NCBI GenBank assembly: GCA_905182125.1
Contig: CAJJAV010000008.1
Span: 3,974-67,973 of the forward strand
Direction: 5' to 3'
Length of the DNA: 64,000 nt
Origin: an uncultured Candidatus Poseidoniales archaeon
Lineage (GTDB): Archaea > Thermoplasmatota > Poseidoniia > Poseidoniales > Poseidoniaceae
Positions 26,987 through 33,987 of the stretch are shown piece after piece (position 1 is the first letter of the stretch; each line of letters begins with the position of its first letter). Below the pieces are notes generated by a model. The model saw only the letters and a list, made by a program, of their open reading frames with translations. It had not been told where the DNA came from and made no database searches. The position numbers were made by a program, and so were the translations under genes.

Positions 26987-26997
26987 TTCACTTTCAC
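26987..26997 (+). promoter_or_regulatory. TTCACTTTCAC motif (tandem TTCAC half-sites) upstream of the small-ORF/PolB operon
   Basis: Seen: it starts 1 nt after the serA stop and ends 55 nt before the ATG at 27053. An identical 11-mer recurs at 32785..32795 on the minus strand. A regulatory role is inference. Confidence 0.4.
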
Positions 26998-27052
26998 TTG
27001 AACCTGCTCGGGTCTCACGAACGATGGTCAATGGTGGCGGTGATTCCCACCC

Positions 27053-27340
27053 ATGGGACGAACGGTACCAACTTGGCGGACACGAATCGAAAACGAACTT
27101 CATTCGCTGGAGATGTTCCGTCGTGCACTTCCTTCGACTGAGAAGCCGTTGTTCGATGCGCTTCTTACGGGGGTTCGAAACCGGCGAACCGCCGGTGGCA
27201 TGTTGCCCTCACATGATGTTTGGAAACCTATGCTGCTTTCCATGTTGATCGAGATGATGGTTCAGAATGCCAAACTCGAACGACGCTTGGACGTTCTTGA
27301 AACGGCCGAGGTGATGGGCGATGAGCCGGCCCATTCTTGA
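27053..27340 (+). CDS. Small hypothetical protein (95 aa) translationally coupled to PolB
   Basis: Seen: GGTGA lies 9 nt upstream of the ATG, and the 3' end overlaps the PolB ATG by 20 nt. It looks helical (ENELHSLEMFRRALPSTEKPLFDALL...). No family recognised. Confidence 0.5.
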   Translation: MGRTVPTWRTRIENELHSLEMFRRALPSTEKPLFDALLTGVRNRRTAGGMLPSHDVWKPMLLSMLIEMMVQNAKLERRLDVLETAEVMGDEPAHS

Positions 27341-29744
27341 TGTTCAAAGCGCCGCCAACGGGACTTCAATGGATGTATGGCTGCTCGATGGTGAGCGTGG
27401 GGCAGTCAAGGTCAATGTCCCCTGGTGCCCTTCAATTCACGTCCATGCAACCCGGCACCGACTGAAGCACCTGTGGGCTTGGTTGGAACAACCTGAGATT
27501 CGTGACCGATTTGGCGTTGGCATGATGCGAACGCACCGTTCTCGACTTTCATTCGATGCTTCGGAAGTGGATGATGTGCTCGAAATCGATGTCCACAACA
27601 GTTGGAACATGAGGAAACTAGCAGCCCACATTGAAACCCGGGGTCAGTACCGTCACCACACCCTCTATTCGGTCGACGCTCACCTAGCGCAGCGTTTTCT
27701 GGTTGAGTATGGCATAGCACCATTCCAACGGGTGGAGTGGGACGGGGCCACATTCCAAGCCTTGCAACGCTCTTGGCACCTGCCAGAACTCAGCGTTGTT
27801 CACATGAGCGTCACCTACCGTACCACCAACGGGTTTCACACAGAAGAGGCTGAAATTGATGCCATCGAATTCCGAGCCTGTTCAGCAGATGGCCGATGCG
27901 ACCTTGATGCGCCGCCCATGCGTTCGCTGCTTCGGGCGAATCATCGCGATTCAGGGATGTTCTTGGGGCATCTTGAAGCGGTCATGAGCGAGTTCAATCC
28001 TGATGTGCTGTTGACGCACGGTGGCGATGGGCTCCATTTCCCTGCATTGATGAGGCTGGCAAAGCAAGCAGGTGTGACCTTGTCGCTCAGCCGTGATGAC
28101 CGTCCACTGGCGGCTCGTACCTCTGCTCGAACTGTTCACTCATACGGCCAAACCCTGCATAAAGACGGGTATATCCCACTGTATGGGCGCCTGCACATCG
28201 ATCAAAACAGCAGCTTCATCGTTCGTGAGGGTGGCTTACTCGGTCTGTTTGAACTGGCACAGCATTCCCAACAATCCCCGCAAGACATCTCCCGACTTTC
28301 GCCTGGGTCCGTGATCAGTGCGATTCAAATGCGTACGGCAATGGAGGATGGGGTGCTTGTGCCATGGAAGAAAAACCGTCCAGAGGATACCAAAACTGCT
28401 TGGGCGTTGCTTCATGCCGACCGGGGTGGTTTGTACCTTGACAGCAAACCCGGCGTGTATGGTCACGTGGTTGAACTTGACTTTGCGAGCCTCTTTCCAA
28501 GCATCATTGCCACTCGTAACATCTCCACTGAGACCCTTAACTGCCCGTGTTGCCAAGCTAAAGAATCGCCTGATGCAAGTCACTTTGTTCCCCTTCACCC
28601 CGCTGATGCGGAACGGGCCTTTACCGAGCGACACACAAAACGTCACTTCGGTGCAGGGCTGTTTCCAATCGCTTCTCCAAACGCTCTTCCCGTTCCCGGA
28701 CTTGCCTCACACACATGTGGGCAAATTCACGGCTTCCTCGGACGCATTGTAGCGCCCTTGATTGAGCGAAGGCGCCAGTTGAAGCTTCAAATCCTCACCA
28801 AAGGCGACCGTTTTGATCAACAGCAAAATGCTCTCAAATGGTTGCTCGTAACCTGCTTTGGATACACAGGATACAAGAATGCTCGATTTGGACGGATTGA
28901 AGCCCACGAAGCGATTTGCGCTTGGGCGCGTGATATTCTTCTCGAGACCATTGCGATGGCGGAAGAAGACGGTTGGGAAGTGCTGCATGCCATCGTGGAT
29001 TGTGTTTGGATTCAGGACCGGCGTCAGCGAACTGCAGAACAACGCCGCATCGATGCTCATGCCTTCGCTCAACGGGTCACAGAACGTGTGGGAATCCCTC
29101 TTGAATTCGAAGACATGTACCGTTTCATCGGTTTTGTCCCGAGCCGTGTTCACGGAGCTGGTTCCCTGACGAAGTATTGGGCGTTTGGAGAACATGGGTT
29201 GAAAGTTCGAGGGATTGAACAACGGCAACACTCGACCTGTGTCTGGGTTGCCAACATGCAACAAAGGGCGCTCCAAATGCTCGTTGAACATTCCAACGAC
29301 ATCGATGGTGTTCCTGGTCTGACGGCTCAAAAAGCAGTCGTTTCGCTGTTGCAGCAACAGATTCAGCGCCTCGAGCGGAATGAAGTTGGGTTGGACGAAC
29401 TTGTTGTGGCACGCCGAGTGACTCGGGATTTGGATGACTTTCATGTGGCGACCCTCACCCATGCAGCGTTGCTTCGTGGTCGCCTTCACGGTGTGACCAT
29501 TCCCCCAGGGGGTAAAGTGCGCTTTGCAGTTGTTGCTTCGACTGGGATGGTGCAACATGAACGGGTGATTTTACTCGAAGAGTTGGATCATGATCAACAC
29601 CTGTCGAAACGTCCCGATGTGGATCATTACAGAGCGTTGGCCATCCGTGCCATTTGGGCCATTGTGGCACCTTTTGGATGGGATGAAGAGGAAGTGTGTG
29701 TCGGTCAGCGTCGATCATCGTTGGATGCTTACATGGAGCAGTGA
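27321..29744 (+). CDS. polB: Family-B DNA polymerase with degenerate 3'-5' exonuclease motifs (PolB2-like)
   Basis: Seen: pol motif A ELDFASLFPSII, motif B KWLLVTCFGYTGY, and motif C reading VLHAIVDCV where canonical PolB has VLYxDTDG/S (second Asp kept). ExoI is LSVVHMSV instead of FDIE, and ExoII is THGGDGLHFPAL instead of YNGDxFDxPYL. Alignment to Pfu-type PolB was done by eye from memory. Confidence 0.9.
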   Translation: MSRPILDVQSAANGTSMDVWLLDGERGAVKVNVPWCPSIHVHATRHRLKHLWAWLEQPEIRDRFGVGMMRTHRSRLSFDASEVDDVLEIDVHNSWNMRKLAAHIETRGQYRHHTLYSVDAHLAQRFLVEYGIAPFQRVEWDGATFQALQRSWHLPELSVVHMSVTYRTTNGFHTEEAEIDAIEFRACSADGRCDLDAPPMRSLLRANHRDSGMFLGHLEAVMSEFNPDVLLTHGGDGLHFPALMRLAKQAGVTLSLSRDDRPLAARTSARTVHSYGQTLHKDGYIPLYGRLHIDQNSSFIVREGGLLGLFELAQHSQQSPQDISRLSPGSVISAIQMRTAMEDGVLVPWKKNRPEDTKTAWALLHADRGGLYLDSKPGVYGHVVELDFASLFPSIIATRNISTETLNCPCCQAKESPDASHFVPLHPADAERAFTERHTKRHFGAGLFPIASPNALPVPGLASHTCGQIHGFLGRIVAPLIERRRQLKLQILTKGDRFDQQQNALKWLLVTCFGYTGYKNARFGRIEAHEAICAWARDILLETIAMAEEDGWEVLHAIVDCVWIQDRRQRTAEQRRIDAHAFAQRVTERVGIPLEFEDMYRFIGFVPSRVHGAGSLTKYWAFGEHGLKVRGIEQRQHSTCVWVANMQQRALQMLVEHSNDIDGVPGLTAQKAVVSLLQQQIQRLERNEVGLDELVVARRVTRDLDDFHVATLTHAALLRGRLHGVTIPPGGKVRFAVVASTGMVQHERVILLEELDHDQHLSKRPDVDHYRALAIRAIWAIVAPFGWDEEEVCVGQRRSSLDAYMEQ

Positions 29745-29826: not shown

Positions 29827-30837
29827 TCAGAGTTCACTCGATTCTGGATTGGTTTCAGTTCTGAAGTATCGGTAGAAGAAGTACAATGATGCCCCCGTCA
29901 ATATGTGCCACACAGCATGGTATTGGAACAGTGAATCAGGGTTACAGGCTGCCTCACCGCTGCGACCATAGCGCCATACGATGTTGCCCACAATGTAGCA
30001 GCCGAATCCAATCCACAAATCCGGTTGAGCTTTGCGAAGGAGGGTCTGTCCCGGGTTGAAGTGGAGCGCTAATGCGATGCCGATGAACATCAAACAGAGG
30101 AGGATGATTTGCATGGTTGGGGCGCCAACAGAAAGTGTGATGCATGCCACAAGTGGGACTCCAATCATCCAAGGCCATTGATTCCCAGTGAGGTTTTTTG
30201 CCTCCTGTATCAGCCATACTCCGATGTACAAGGACCACAAATAATCTCGTGTGATGCTGGAGAGTTTGAGGTTCCGTGATCCTGAAAAGTTCTCAATGAG
30301 GGTGACGTTATTGTTGGCAGCAAAGGTGTCCAATAGGGCAGTCAATACGAACACGCAGAAAAACACAGTTAGAAAAAATCGGTCACTCCAGCGGTATTGG
30401 CGGCTGAGGTTGTAATAAACGGGAAAGGAGATGAAAAACAACATGCCGGTCCAATCCATACTGGTGCCCCAGTTGGTGTTCGTACCATGCATGGCAAAAC
30501 TACCGACTCCAATGTAGATGGAACCGGTTGCGAAAAGAATCGGGTACACGCTCCGTTCAAGCATTGGATTTCTTGACTTCTCCCTGGTTGTAGGCAGGTT
30601 CCACAAAACAACGAGCCCCACGAACACATAGGTCAAGTTGGACAACGTGTTCATCGGTTCCTTGATCAGTCCATCGGAGATTCCTTCGCAGAAATTGGTG
30701 GCAGATTCAATAGGCTCAACAGCCCATGTTGATGCACCAAGGATCGCGTACATTGTAGCAAGAAGGACCAATATTCCGATGGAAACAACAAACTCCCGCT
30801 TTTGTTCGAACAGCGTCGAAAACGATTGTTTGGTCAT
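29827..30837 (-). CDS. Alkaline ceramidase-family (PF05875-like) 7-TM membrane hydrolase
   Basis: Seen: NFCEGISDGLIKEPMNTLSNLTYV (compare ACER WCEeNY..iaEfwNTvSNl), FAMHGT...MDWTGM, and the C-terminal QYHAVWHILTGASLYFFY. The ATG at 30837 is preferred. Confidence 0.7.
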   Translation of the reverse strand: MTKQSFSTLFEQKREFVVSIGILVLLATMYAILGASTWAVEPIESATNFCEGISDGLIKEPMNTLSNLTYVFVGLVVLWNLPTTREKSRNPMLERSVYPILFATGSIYIGVGSFAMHGTNTNWGTSMDWTGMLFFISFPVYYNLSRQYRWSDRFFLTVFFCVFVLTALLDTFAANNNVTLIENFSGSRNLKLSSITRDYLWSLYIGVWLIQEAKNLTGNQWPWMIGVPLVACITLSVGAPTMQIILLCLMFIGIALALHFNPGQTLLRKAQPDLWIGFGCYIVGNIVWRYGRSGEAACNPDSLFQYHAVWHILTGASLYFFYRYFRTETNPESSEL

Positions 30838-31022
30838 GGGTCGGCGACATCGCTGTAGTATTTCGTTCTGAGTGTTGAACAGCAGCATTGTCCCAGCAGG
30901 CAGATGTCATCGAGCCACATCGACGTGGCTCGGTTGCTAACCTGATACACTTTTCAGCTTCTATTCATACTCAACGCATATCAGTGAAGTGCTTTACGCT
31001 CAGGTCGGGTGACTCTTTGGGA

Positions 31023-31772
31023 GTGAAGAAATATGGGGACCGTGAGGTCATTGATTTGTCCGAATGGGGCCGGCCAATCGCTCGTGTGATGGCCAACTTC
31101 CTCAAGGAGAAACCAATTTCTGTGATGCAGGTCACCAACATCCACTTTGTTCTCTCGCTCTATTGTGCTTGGCTGATCTATGAAGGGAGCACAATTCTTG
31201 CTTGCTCGTTGCTCATTGTGAAGGGTGTGATTGACGCAGTTGATGGCGAATTGGCCCGCATGCGTGAACGTCCATCGCACGTTGGACGGTACTGGGACAC
31301 CGTGGCTGACACCCTCGGCTTGGTTGCTGTAATGTGGGCATTCGCTACCCTGTTGAACTGGGAGGTTGCTTTCACCGGTGCCATGATTTTGGCGACCTTA
31401 TTCCAGTATTCATTGTTCAATCACTATTCAATTTTGATGCGTGCCCTCGGTTCCGGGGACGACACCAGTCGAATTGATGAGCGCGTCCGCCCGGTTGCTC
31501 ACCCTTGGGAGAAGCAGAGCAATGTCAACTTCTTGCATTTCATCTACTTGTGCTTTTTCAGTTGGCAAGACCGAATCATCTCCGCATTAACTGGCAAAGG
31601 CTCAGAAAAACTCGTGTTCGAATTGACCGTTTCTTCTTCGCTCGGATACGGTGCACAATCGATCGTCATCTTTTTGCTGGCATTGACACAGAACCTCGAT
31701 TACTTGCCTCACTTGGTCTTAGGTGTCAATGGTTCTTTGATGGCCTTGGTCATCCTTCGCAGTCGAATCTAG
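31023..31772 (+). CDS. CDP-alcohol phosphatidyltransferase family protein
   Basis: Seen: signature DAVDGELARMRERPSHVGRYWDTVAD (D-x2-DG-x2-AR...G-x3-D-x3-D) and multiple TM helices. The start is uncertain (GTG 31023 is my choice; the track has TTG 30888). Confidence 0.8.
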   Translation: MKKYGDREVIDLSEWGRPIARVMANFLKEKPISVMQVTNIHFVLSLYCAWLIYEGSTILACSLLIVKGVIDAVDGELARMRERPSHVGRYWDTVADTLGLVAVMWAFATLLNWEVAFTGAMILATLFQYSLFNHYSILMRALGSGDDTSRIDERVRPVAHPWEKQSNVNFLHFIYLCFFSWQDRIISALTGKGSEKLVFELTVSSSLGYGAQSIVIFLLALTQNLDYLPHLVLGVNGSLMALVILRSRI

Positions 31773-32022: not shown

Positions 32023-32733
32023 TCAATGCAAACCGGCATCTGTCAACTGATCGAACACACGGAAGAGGCTCTTTGCGACCCTTGGTTCCGGCCACATACC
32101 TGAAGTCCCGCTTGGTTGGTGAATCAACCATCTGGGAGAGCGGTCTGTTTTCGCACTTCTTTGTTCGGTGAGGTGTTGGGATGAACGCCGTTCAATCATC
32201 GCCAGCAAATGTTGATGCCGCTTGGATACCGGTTCGGTAGCAGTAATGACAATGACTGCCGTGTTGCTTTTTTCAGCCAAGTCTTGGAGTTGAATGCTGA
32301 TGCTACGCATAAGACTCCGGGCCTCATGATCCCCCACTTGCGTGTCCAAATGCATGGCAATCGGTCCATCGATCACTACCAATGGGGATCGAGTGATCGA
32401 AACTTCCCTTGGCAGACGTTCAACTAAAGTGGCCAGTTGATGAACGGTAAAACCACGCCCGATGAACAAACGATGGAGATGATCACGTGCTGAAGGCTCA
32501 TGACTTGGAAAGCATTTCAAAATCCGGCTTGGGTCAATGCGTGATGCACCATCGACCCAGTGGACACTTTCACCTCGCATCAAAGCGGCTACGGTCCAAG
32601 CCTCAGCGTACTTCCTCATGCTCTGTCCTGCACGGCCATGGCCGTGCAACTGGTAGATTCCCCCCCGCATTGGTGCGATTGTTGTGAGGTCCAATGCTGC
32701 ATCGCTTCGTTGAATGGGGAAGTTAACGGTCAT
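32023..32733 (-). CDS. RadB/RecA-fold paralog with a degenerate Walker A (predicted ATPase-dead)
   Basis: Seen: MRGGIYQLHGHGRAGQS sits at the P-loop position (GxxGxGK[ST] with Lys replaced by Gln). Also present are ESVHWVDG, the Rad51/RadB-like LHRLFIGRGFTVHQLATLVERL, Walker B PLVVIDG, and NTAVIVIT. The family call is by eye. Confidence 0.7.
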   Translation of the reverse strand: MTVNFPIQRSDAALDLTTIAPMRGGIYQLHGHGRAGQSMRKYAEAWTVAALMRGESVHWVDGASRIDPSRILKCFPSHEPSARDHLHRLFIGRGFTVHQLATLVERLPREVSITRSPLVVIDGPIAMHLDTQVGDHEARSLMRSISIQLQDLAEKSNTAVIVITATEPVSKRHQHLLAMIERRSSQHLTEQRSAKTDRSPRWLIHQPSGTSGMWPEPRVAKSLFRVFDQLTDAGLH

Positions 32734-32771
32734 ACCTCGGAAGGTTTGGAACCCGGTCCTCTTTCCTTCGG

Positions 32772-32795
32772 TTCACCCCCTCGGGTGAAAGTGAA
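32772..32795 (-). promoter_or_regulatory. Operator-like cluster: inverted repeat TTCACCC-N4-GGGTGAA overlapping GTGAAAGTGAA (= TTCACTTTCAC on the minus strand)
   Basis: Seen: it sits in the 120-nt divergent intergenic region, with the 11-mer 51 nt from the RadB-like ATG and 58 nt from the dinB ATG. The function is inference. Confidence 0.4.
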
Positions 32796-32853
32796 TGTCA
32801 TCAGGCCAAAAGATGTCATCAACTTGAAACACCGTGGCCACTCGAACAGGGTC

Positions 32854-33987
32854 ATGAAGGAGGAGAATGCAGGGACCTCTTCCTCAAACGAACGCATTCT
32901 TGTCCATTGTGATTTGGATGCGTTTTTTGCTTCGGTGGAAATCCTTCACCGAAGTTTAGACCCAGAACGTCCATTGATCATTGGATCAGACCCCAAAAGT
33001 GGTCGCGGGCGTGGCATCGTTTCCACATGCAACTACGCAGCCAGAGCGTTTGGTATTCGCTCCGCCATGCCGATTGGCGAAGCGTGGCGACGTTGCCCAG
33101 GTGCTCCGTTTGGCACAGGGCACTACATTCATGGTACGCGAGGTTTGTACAATCGAGCCTCAAGAAAGGTGATGGCGATGTTACGACCTCCGGCAGAACA
33201 TTTTGAACAAGCGGGCATCGATGAGGCCTATCTTGACATTACGAATGAAGTCGAAGGTGATTGGGATCGAGCTTACGCCCTCTGCCGTGATTTGCAAAAA
33301 TCGATTGAAGCGCACTTGGGTCTCACCGCTTCGTTCGGTATTGCACCGACACGAATCTTGGCAAAAATGTCAAGTGAAATCAACAAACCAAACGGGATTT
33401 TTAGGATGCTGCCAGACGAAACTCACGAATTCTTTGTCGAACGCTCGTTGCGTGAAGTCCCCGGTATTGGACCGAAAAGGGCCACACAATTGGCCGAGTG
33501 GGGTTTCAACACCGTCGATGAAGCATATGAATTGGGTGAATTGGCGTTGGGACGCATCGCAGGTGAACGGTTTGCGACCTGGCTTGTACAGGTCGTCGAC
33601 GGTGATACCAGCAGTGAAGTGAGCCCTCTTCGCAGTCGCAAATCGATTGGTAAGGAGAACACATTTTCTAGCGATGAACATGACAATGAACGCGTGTTGG
33701 AGCGCCTCAAAACACTTGTCGAGACGGTGATGGCCAAGGCCAAGGGGATCGGCGTGGCAGGTCGCTTGTGCGAGGTTAAGGTACGGTACACTGGGTTTGA
33801 AACTCATACCCATGGGCGTTCAATTCCTGTGGCCATGGATGATGTCGATGTCTTCACGCGCCTTGCGGTACGTTTGTTTGCTCTGAATGTCGATCATCAA
33901 CGACCAATCCGTTTGATTGGTTTTCGACTTGGTCAACTCGACATGCCACCAACTCGGCAAGCCAAGTTAGCACTCGAAGAGGAATAA
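32854..33987 (+). CDS. dinB: Y-family DNA polymerase IV (DinB/Dbh/Dpo4)
   Basis: Seen: HCDLDAFFASVE, GIVSTCNYAARAFGIRSAMP, GIDEAYLDIT, SFGIAPTRILAKMSSEINKPNG, VPGIGPKRATQL. The ATG at 32854 is preferred; the track ORF extends to 32560 and would overlap the divergent gene. Confidence 0.9.
   Translation: MKEENAGTSSSNERILVHCDLDAFFASVEILHRSLDPERPLIIGSDPKSGRGRGIVSTCNYAARAFGIRSAMPIGEAWRRCPGAPFGTGHYIHGTRGLYNRASRKVMAMLRPPAEHFEQAGIDEAYLDITNEVEGDWDRAYALCRDLQKSIEAHLGLTASFGIAPTRILAKMSSEINKPNGIFRMLPDETHEFFVERSLREVPGIGPKRATQLAEWGFNTVDEAYELGELALGRIAGERFATWLVQVVDGDTSSEVSPLRSRKSIGKENTFSSDEHDNERVLERLKTLVETVMAKAKGIGVAGRLCEVKVRYTGFETHTHGRSIPVAMDDVDVFTRLAVRLFALNVDHQRPIRLIGFRLGQLDMPPTRQAKLALEEE

Follow-up and report, generated by a model that had tools for sequence, protein, structure and literature searches.

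Inactivated RadA (iRadA) proteins have been previously connected with a family-B DNA polymerase in archaea. The predicted operon of PolB2, arCOG07300 and an inactivated RadA was first reported by Makarova et al. 2014 (PMC4104785), who held three mutually unrecognisable iRadA arCOGs to be orthologous by their context, i.e. sequence similarity does not define the group. Later arCOG07300 was renamed PPB2 and the trio was modelled as a PolB2:iRadA:PPB2x3 heteropentamer (Timinskas, Timinskas & Venclovas 2025; PMC11791011). In Sulfolobales, PolB2 is exemplified by Dpo2, which is induced by damage, has a dead exonuclease and extends primer ends that are mismatched or contain a lesion. The PolB2-mutasome system itself is already known, a Poseidoniales representative included: EHR76801 (PolB2), EHR76800 (iRadA) and EHR76802 (PPB2) of an MG-II genome belong to the operon group '3b (PPB2-PolB2-iRadA)' (PMC11791011, supplementary file 2), and the model of their complex has a pLDDT of 87, an ipTM of 0.86 and a ranking score of 0.866 (PMC11791011). 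Here we have analysed 64,000 nucleotides from an uncultured Candidatus Poseidoniales archaeon (contig CAJJAV010000008.1, positions 3,974 to 67,973; the whole stretch is called the window below). It encodes a 236-aa protein divergently from dinB, the gene of a Y-family polymerase. Our results indicate that this protein is very probably iRadA, a subunit of the archaeal PolB2 mutasome that resembles RadA but is non-catalytic.

The protein resembles the published iRadA in its fold, in the missing N-terminal domain and in the broken ATPase site. A sequence-only reading of the window had described a 236-aa minus-strand open reading frame with the motifs GHGRAGQS, ESVHWVDG, PLVVIDG and NTAVIVIT; all of them are present, together with LHRLFIGRGFTVHQLATLVERL. 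The ATPase site is damaged at two positions. In the Walker A motif GHGRAGQS (residues 31-38) the Lys is replaced by Gln37 (codon CAG at 32625-32623), and the catalytic Glu of RadA (in IDTEN) aligns to Ala63 (in VHWVDGASR); Walker B Asp122 is retained. An AlphaFold2 model based on 22 homologues has a mean pLDDT of 83.6 and a pTM of 0.81, with the first strand starting at residue 26. When this model was compared with the Protein Data Bank (PDB) by Foldseek, the best matches were cores of Dmc1, RAD51 and RadA (E ~1e-11, query-normalised TM 0.62-0.69). At the sequence level the Pfam Rad51 match is weak (E=0.0028, under the gathering score) and the closest PDB entry is RadA (E=0.03). Neither the window protein nor any of ten distant relatives matches ImuA, KaiC or other named families in Pfam or NCBIfam. 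As modelled, the fold is the RadA/Rad51 ATPase core without the N-terminal helical/oligomerisation domain, in agreement with the RadA/RadB-type fold with a broken P-loop that had been expected.

Orthology to the published Poseidoniales member can be followed directly. The N-terminus of the iRadA encoded at CM001443.1 (locus L009) agrees with the fragment of EHR76800 shown in PMC11791011 (supplementary file 2), and the window protein is 60% identical to it over 232 residues. The family was collected by an exhaustive profile search (535 representatives at E<=0.001) and by a scan of GTDB species representatives, which gave 116 genomic copies of iRadA; 80 loci were fetched, plus metagenome loci. 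According to their titles the 80 loci belong to Poseidoniales, unclassified euryarchaea or Thermoplasmatota, with a single exception named 'uncultured bacterium'. The exception (L079, CAXHAW010000423.1) is a 1.9-kb contig carrying Poseidoniales-typical fragments of dinB, iRadA and polB2, and its place in that metagenome-assembled genome (MAG) is probably a binning error.

The octapeptide GHGRAGQS is identical in a cluster of 98%-identical proteins (P0001, 24 sequences) and in an independent, 93%-identical Poseidoniaceae MAG locus (L008). Since both carry it, Gln37 is genuine, and a sequencing error, which the sequence-only reading had considered, is rejected. The same reading had supposed that orthologues with an intact GK[ST] would speak for a plain RadB. 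At 85 loci the Walker A position is occupied by K 55, R 14, S 7, A 5, Q 2 and D 1 times, i.e. Poseidoniales orthologues mostly keep the Lys and the window protein with its Gln differs from them. However, every orthologue has Ala or Gly at the position of the catalytic Glu and is tied to PolB2, and for these two reasons we use the name iRadA rather than RadB. The Walker A pattern indicates that the Lys has been lost repeatedly and independently, and because of this the constraint on the P-loop appears to be relaxed. In distant high-GC iRadA-like proteins (P0071, P0074, P0076, P0077, P0081 and P0084) the P-loop is wholly lost. These six proteins also share a C-terminal tail, S-S-(D/S)-Q-P-N-G-(E/D)...A-x-R-x-A-S-G. 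Invariant in the 22 aligned homologues are the Walker B Asp, VHWxDGAxR, GRGFTVHQ and SKRH; the last is not retained in the more distant Poseidoniales clade.

The neighbours known from the published mutasome are found in the window as well: a PolB2 with an IxD motif C, ADRGG and a dead exonuclease, and a PPB2 with the MGRT arm (Table 1). Against S. islandicus Dpo2 the window PolB2 gives a BLASTP E of 4e-31; IVD aligns to IID and ADRGG, the D(K/R) motif, to ADKGG. IVD, in which the first Asp of DTD is lost, occurs at 78 of 84 loci. The loop VLVPWKKNRPEDTKTAWALLHADRGG is present and aligns to the loop of Dpo2. The polymerase domain is the sole Pfam match, i.e. there is none to an exonuclease domain, and at Exo II NFD aligns to LHF with the Asp replaced. 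With the 'type B' subfamily models of NCBIfam the scores are 377-380 bits, under the cutoffs. The window PPB2 is 62% identical to a published group-3b PPB2. Its N-terminal MGRT arm has been described (PMC11791011), and MGRT or MGRS followed by Arg9 is found at nearly all loci. The 3' end of the PPB2 gene overlaps polB2 by 20 nt (27321-27340), which suggests translational coupling.

Linkage was followed by mapping the neighbour proteins of the window onto all fetched loci by tblastn, with counts limited to loci with enough flank. PolB2 lies within 700 nt of iRadA, tail-to-tail, in 73 of 75 Poseidoniales loci, and a gene for a ~90-aa PPB2 precedes the polymerase. At 45 of 78 loci the gene divergent from iRadA is dinB. 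The proposal that the protein serves a TLS (translesion synthesis) polymerase by a mutasome-like logic is thus upheld as regards the TLS accessory, but the partner is PolB2 and not DinB. By sequence the loci form three clades, two of which have the whole block MMPL-ValRS-DinB-iRadA-PolB2-PPB2-dehydrogenase (ValRS, valyl-tRNA synthetase) in synteny. In the third (L021-L058) iRadA-PolB2-PPB2 lies beside a PRC-domain gene and a metallo-beta-lactamase gene, and there is no DinB within 10 kb of the trio (33 of 78 loci). The sequence-only reading, which rightly placed the host in Poseidoniales, had asked whether the divergent pair with dinB is conserved there; it is common but missing from a whole clade. 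DinB adjacency is also seen in the more distant metagenome loci L089-L091. A distant high-GC homologue (P0071, locus L088) is convergent with an orthologous PolB (45% identity, C-terminal fragment), and its divergent neighbour is an SRAP gene. Because the trio stays together without DinB in the third clade, and the gene pairs with PolB but not with DinB in L088, the conserved unit is iRadA-PolB2-PPB2, and DinB is part of a local synteny block outside this three-gene module. The published data agree with these clades: Table S1 of PMC11791011 lists, for 95 group-3b neighbourhoods, IMS 46 times, 2-Hacid_dh_C 45, tRNA-synt_1 42 and Lactamase_B 32. The DinB neighbour is tabulated yet not discussed in that paper.

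Table 1. Features of the iRadA-PolB2-PPB2 locus in the window
Feature	Position	Strand	Description
Upstream element TTCACTTTCACTT	26987..26999	plus	same element as TTCACTTTCAC; 66 nt before PPB2 ATG; exact 11-mer at 26987-26997
PPB2 (arCOG07300)	27053..27340	plus	95 aa; N-terminus MGRTVPTWR (Arg3, Arg9); Pfam DUF8156 in precomputed annotation
PolB2	27321..29744	plus	807-aa family-B polymerase; motif A LDFASLFPS, motif C IVD 558-560, ADRGG 366-370
Two-gene insertion between polB2 and iRadA	29827..31772		ceramidase-like membrane protein 29827-30888 minus; CDP-alcohol phosphatidyltransferase 30888-31772 plus
iRadA	32023..32733	minus	236-aa RadA/Rad51 ATPase core, ATG start; no N-terminal helix-hairpin-helix (HhH)/polymerisation domain
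Upstream element TTCACTTTCAC	32785..32795	minus	62 nt before iRadA ATG; middle of the 120-nt iRadA-dinB intergenic region
Second intergenic block GGTGTTTCAAGTTGATGAC (iRadA strand)	32815..32833	minus	21-39 nt upstream of dinB ATG
dinB	32854..33987	plus	Pol IV/Dpo4-like Y-family polymerase, 377 aa; ATG 120 nt from iRadA ATG, divergent

Several points weigh against the identification of the window trio as a PolB2 mutasome. The complex of the window PolB2, iRadA and PPB2 is a putative one, and the published complex is likewise a prediction; according to a 2026 review the mutasome model awaits experimental verification (PMC13324097). When the Poseidoniales iRadA profile was compared with S. islandicus iRadA by hhalign, the probability was 0.3, which is not significant; a divergence of this degree was also noted among the iRadA arCOGs by Makarova et al. 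2014. Since similarity to the S. islandicus protein is undetectable, membership in iRadA rests on fold, context and orthology to the published Poseidoniales member. The Sulfolobales trio is a putative operon in one orientation, whereas iRadA of Poseidoniales is always on the opposite strand and in the window lies 2.3 kb from polB2; the opposite strands mean that the trio is no single operon. Lastly, GK[ST] in 55 of 85 orthologues implies that nucleotide binding may persist there, and the word 'inactive' is maybe too strong for these proteins.

The distance of 2.3 kb goes together with the two-gene insertion, by which the window and L008 differ from published group 3b. Among ~85 loci the insertion is common to these two only, and it is recent, because of all the loci only the 93%-identical L008 shares it. 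Its GC content is slightly low (0.48-0.50 vs 0.53-0.55). In most other Poseidoniales the convergent 3' ends of iRadA and polB2 overlap by 4-80 nt, an arrangement that could lead to antisense or termination interplay. Rfam and tRNA scans of the window between 24 and 37 kb gave no matches.

How iRadA would act is best seen from the published AlphaFold models (PMC11791011). There a beta-alpha loop of PolB2 just upstream of ADRGG would mimic the oligomerisation motif of RadA/Rad51 and dock in a pocket of iRadA, and the PPB2 trimer would place one MGRT arm near the DNA, where it would lie between PolB2 and iRadA. In these models clamp-binding motifs sit in either PolB2 or iRadA. In the Poseidoniales lineage the conserved C-terminus of the polymerase suggests that PCNA binding occurs via PolB2: in the window the PIP-like (PCNA-interacting protein) sequence QRRSSLDAYMEQ stands at the C-terminus (residues 795-807, 29703-29741), and [QKR]xxLxx[FY][FMT] is conserved across loci (KFTLFDFF, QPSLLEFT; RSSLDAYM in the window). 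A strict PIP box (Qxx[LIVM]xx[FYW][FYW]-like) is absent from iRadA C-termini, where relaxed matches such as QETLQQSF are limited to the clade that lacks DinB. More specifically, QETLxQ[ST][FY] is conserved about 30 residues before the C-terminus of iRadA in L021-L044; in the same register the window protein reads AKSLFRVF.

This arrangement has a parallel in E. coli Pol V (UmuD'2C-RecA-ATP), where a TLS polymerase likewise binds one RecA/Rad51 protomer via a mimic of the filament interface and the N-terminal arm of the small subunit is inserted near the active site (PMC11791011). The two systems differ in that Pol V relies on cellular RecA in its active form, on a catalytic subunit of the Y family and on dimeric UmuD', whereas the PolB2 mutasome would have an inactive paralogue of its own, a polymerase of the B family and trimeric PPB2.

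Regarding the regulation of the locus, the exact 11-mer TTCACTTTCAC is present in two copies only in the 64-kb window, each oriented toward its downstream gene. A 13-mer search of the window gave 1 match vs 1.0 expected, no more than chance; the case for a shared element is based instead on the recurrence of the exact 11-mer at a second promoter and on conservation across species, which extends over the order Poseidoniales. A position weight matrix (PWM) was trained on PPB2 promoters and used to scan 1.39 Mb, up to 10 kb on each side of iRadA at ~85 loci. It gave 197 matches, of which 93 precede PPB2 and 47 precede iRadA (140 in these upstream zones). The 47 matches on the iRadA side are independent of the training set and mean a ~200-fold enrichment. 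No other members of a TTCACTTTCAC regulon were seen among the remaining 57, which are mostly intragenic or without a downstream open reading frame; one of them is the iRadA promoter itself, shifted by a run of N. The invariant positions are A-N-TTTC-A (PWM scan; upstream zones of L001-L091). Near-equal distances from the two start codons (62 and 66 nt) and the same orientation suggest co-regulation via TTCACTTTCAC of iRadA and PPB2-polB2, which are separate transcription units, and in the proposed mechanism they would be switched on together. This promoter element is not discussed in PMC11791011 and is the one small new point of our analysis; the co-regulation might include dinB.

The Sulfolobales Dpo2 locus offers a comparison, as it holds the same three-gene system, is damage-induced and has A(N)TTTC upstream. 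This damage-response element, 5'-A(N)TTTC-3', is non-palindromic, bound by Orc1-2 and needed for dpo2 induction (PMC6061795, PMC5817253). The match of the Poseidoniales core to it is a lead, with six informative bases only.

DinB shares the intergenic region of iRadA and may enter the picture here. The two ATGs (32733 and 32854) are 120 nt apart, as the sequence-only reading had stated, and its claim of intact catalytic acidic motifs in DinB (DLDAFFASVE and IDEAYLD) is confirmed, the D/D/E residues being kept, with Pfam matches to IMS (1.8e-36) and IMS_C (1.4e-19). The NCBIfam model NF002677 scores 250 bits, slightly under its cutoff of 256. Since dinB orthologues are likewise called at 377 aa, the start at 32854 is supported. 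The extreme C-terminus of DinB (residues 368-377, window 33955-33984) is conserved across orthologues as RQ(A/T)(K/T)L(x)(L/F)EEE, an acidic sequence that has no paired aromatics of the usual PIP box. In the intergenic region a second block, GGTGTTTCAAGTTGATGAC on the iRadA strand, is conserved as GGTGYTTSAASTTGATG (same strand) in both DinB-containing clades and is possibly the core promoter of dinB.

An extension of the iRadA reading, more than a strict rival to it, would be a two-polymerase TLS unit in which DinB as the inserter and the PolB2 mutasome as the extender are co-induced, from the common iRadA-dinB intergenic region and the PPB2 promoter, by a damage-responsive regulator acting on TTCACTTTCAC. 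Contact between iRadA and DinB is not required by it. Such a unit would fit the divergent intergenic region of 92-120 nt, the sequence of which is strongly conserved between clades that share only ~40% identity in iRadA, and the adjacency of DinB in two of the three Poseidoniaceae clades and in L089-L091. It would also fit the distribution of the element, which precedes PPB2 in every clade and is found before iRadA even in the clade that lacks DinB, and the agreement of the invariant A-N-TTTC-A with the Orc1-2-bound element that controls dpo2 (PMC6061795, PMC5817253). On the other hand, TTCACTTTCAC is non-palindromic and points to iRadA, and in one DinB-containing clade it has decayed to TTCAGTTCAA. 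A match of 6 nt to the Sulfolobus element is weak evidence, orc1/cdc6 is found beside 0 of 95 group-3b operons (PMC11791011, Table S1), and according to the damage-response literature on Sulfolobales the Y-family polymerase of S. islandicus is not damage-induced. Moreover, DinB and the housekeeping neighbours ValRS, MMPL and 2-hydroxyacid dehydrogenase are kept with equal frequency, both in the fetched loci and in Table S1 of PMC11791011. Because of this equal retention ordinary synteny explains the adjacency of DinB, and it does so equally well as co-induction. We therefore consider the two-polymerase unit a tentative possibility, with the odds against it. A narrower version, in which TTCACTTTCAC is an Orc1-2-like damage-response element co-inducing the PolB2 mutasome and DinB via the shared intergenic region, is still less likely. 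In relation to iRadA, DinB would be neither a subunit nor a dedicated client, and it may be co-induced as an inserter polymerase.

The sequence-only reading had gone further and proposed an ImuA-like accessory dedicated to DinB, which would load, tether or regulate this polymerase at damaged DNA. It was aware of no archaeal protein with a RecA fold that had been described as a dedicated accessory of a TLS polymerase, a statement that is outdated in view of the 2014 and 2025 papers (PMC4104785, PMC11791011). There is a real likeness to the bacterial ImuA-ImuB-DnaE2 system, in which a RecA-fold non-recombinase likewise works with a replicative-family mutagenic TLS polymerase and a Y-family protein is nearby. 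A RecA fold with a dead ATPase is compatible with the proposal, as in ImuA, and so are the divergent arrangement, the 120-nt spacer and the conserved intergenic region at 45 of 78 loci. However, in bacteria ImuB is a dead Y-family adaptor and DnaE2 is of the C family, whereas here the Y-family polymerase is catalytically intact and outside the module, the catalytic subunit is of the B family and a C-family polymerase is absent from the locus. In addition, iRadA of a whole clade (33 of 78 loci) has moved with PolB2 and PPB2, leaving no DinB within 10 kb, and the distant homologue pairs with PolB2 and not with DinB. The window protein has no match to ImuA in Pfam or NCBIfam at E<=1, and the published models place the docking motif for iRadA on PolB2 (PMC11791011). 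A dedicated DinB accessory is consequently disfavoured and in our opinion very improbable.

The remaining alternative is an ordinary RadB of euryarchaea, which mediates recombination by its action on RadA and lies near polymerase genes by chance. RadB, too, is a short paralogue of RadA that lacks the N-terminal domain, and the P. furiosus protein, whose gene lies in the PolD operon, binds DP1. The NCBIfam RadB model TIGR02237 is the top curated match of the window protein (22.1 bits, E=1e-4), but this is far under the cutoff of 172.4 bits; RadB has retained the ATPase motifs and works together with RadA in recombination, whereas here the Walker A Lys and the catalytic Glu are replaced by Q37 and A63, all orthologues lack this Glu and vary at the Lys, the linkage to PolB2 and PPB2 is invariant, and the family-invariant GRGFTVHQ and SKRH are no RadB motifs, so that membership in RadB was rejected and this alternative has hardly any probability left.

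Based on the results obtained, the identification of the 236-aa protein as iRadA is of value mainly for annotation: thousands of 'hypothetical' sequences of marine Poseidoniales (Marine Group II, MGII) can be named as iRadA, the partner of PolB2/PPB2, and the ImuA-like idea of a DinB-dedicated accessory is to be dropped. The PolB2 mutasome, still a predicted complex, remains of specialist interest. For an uncultured and abundant lineage of sunlit waters the analysis provides two handles that are cheap to test, the shared promoter element and the repeated loss of the Walker A Lys as against its frequent retention. If TTCACTTTCAC is indeed an Orc1-2-like damage-response element that co-induces the two polymerases, one of the most abundant archaeal groups of the surface ocean would possess an inserter/extender TLS regulon, and a damage response of the Orc1-2 type would be older than the split between Thermoproteota and Thermoplasmatota.

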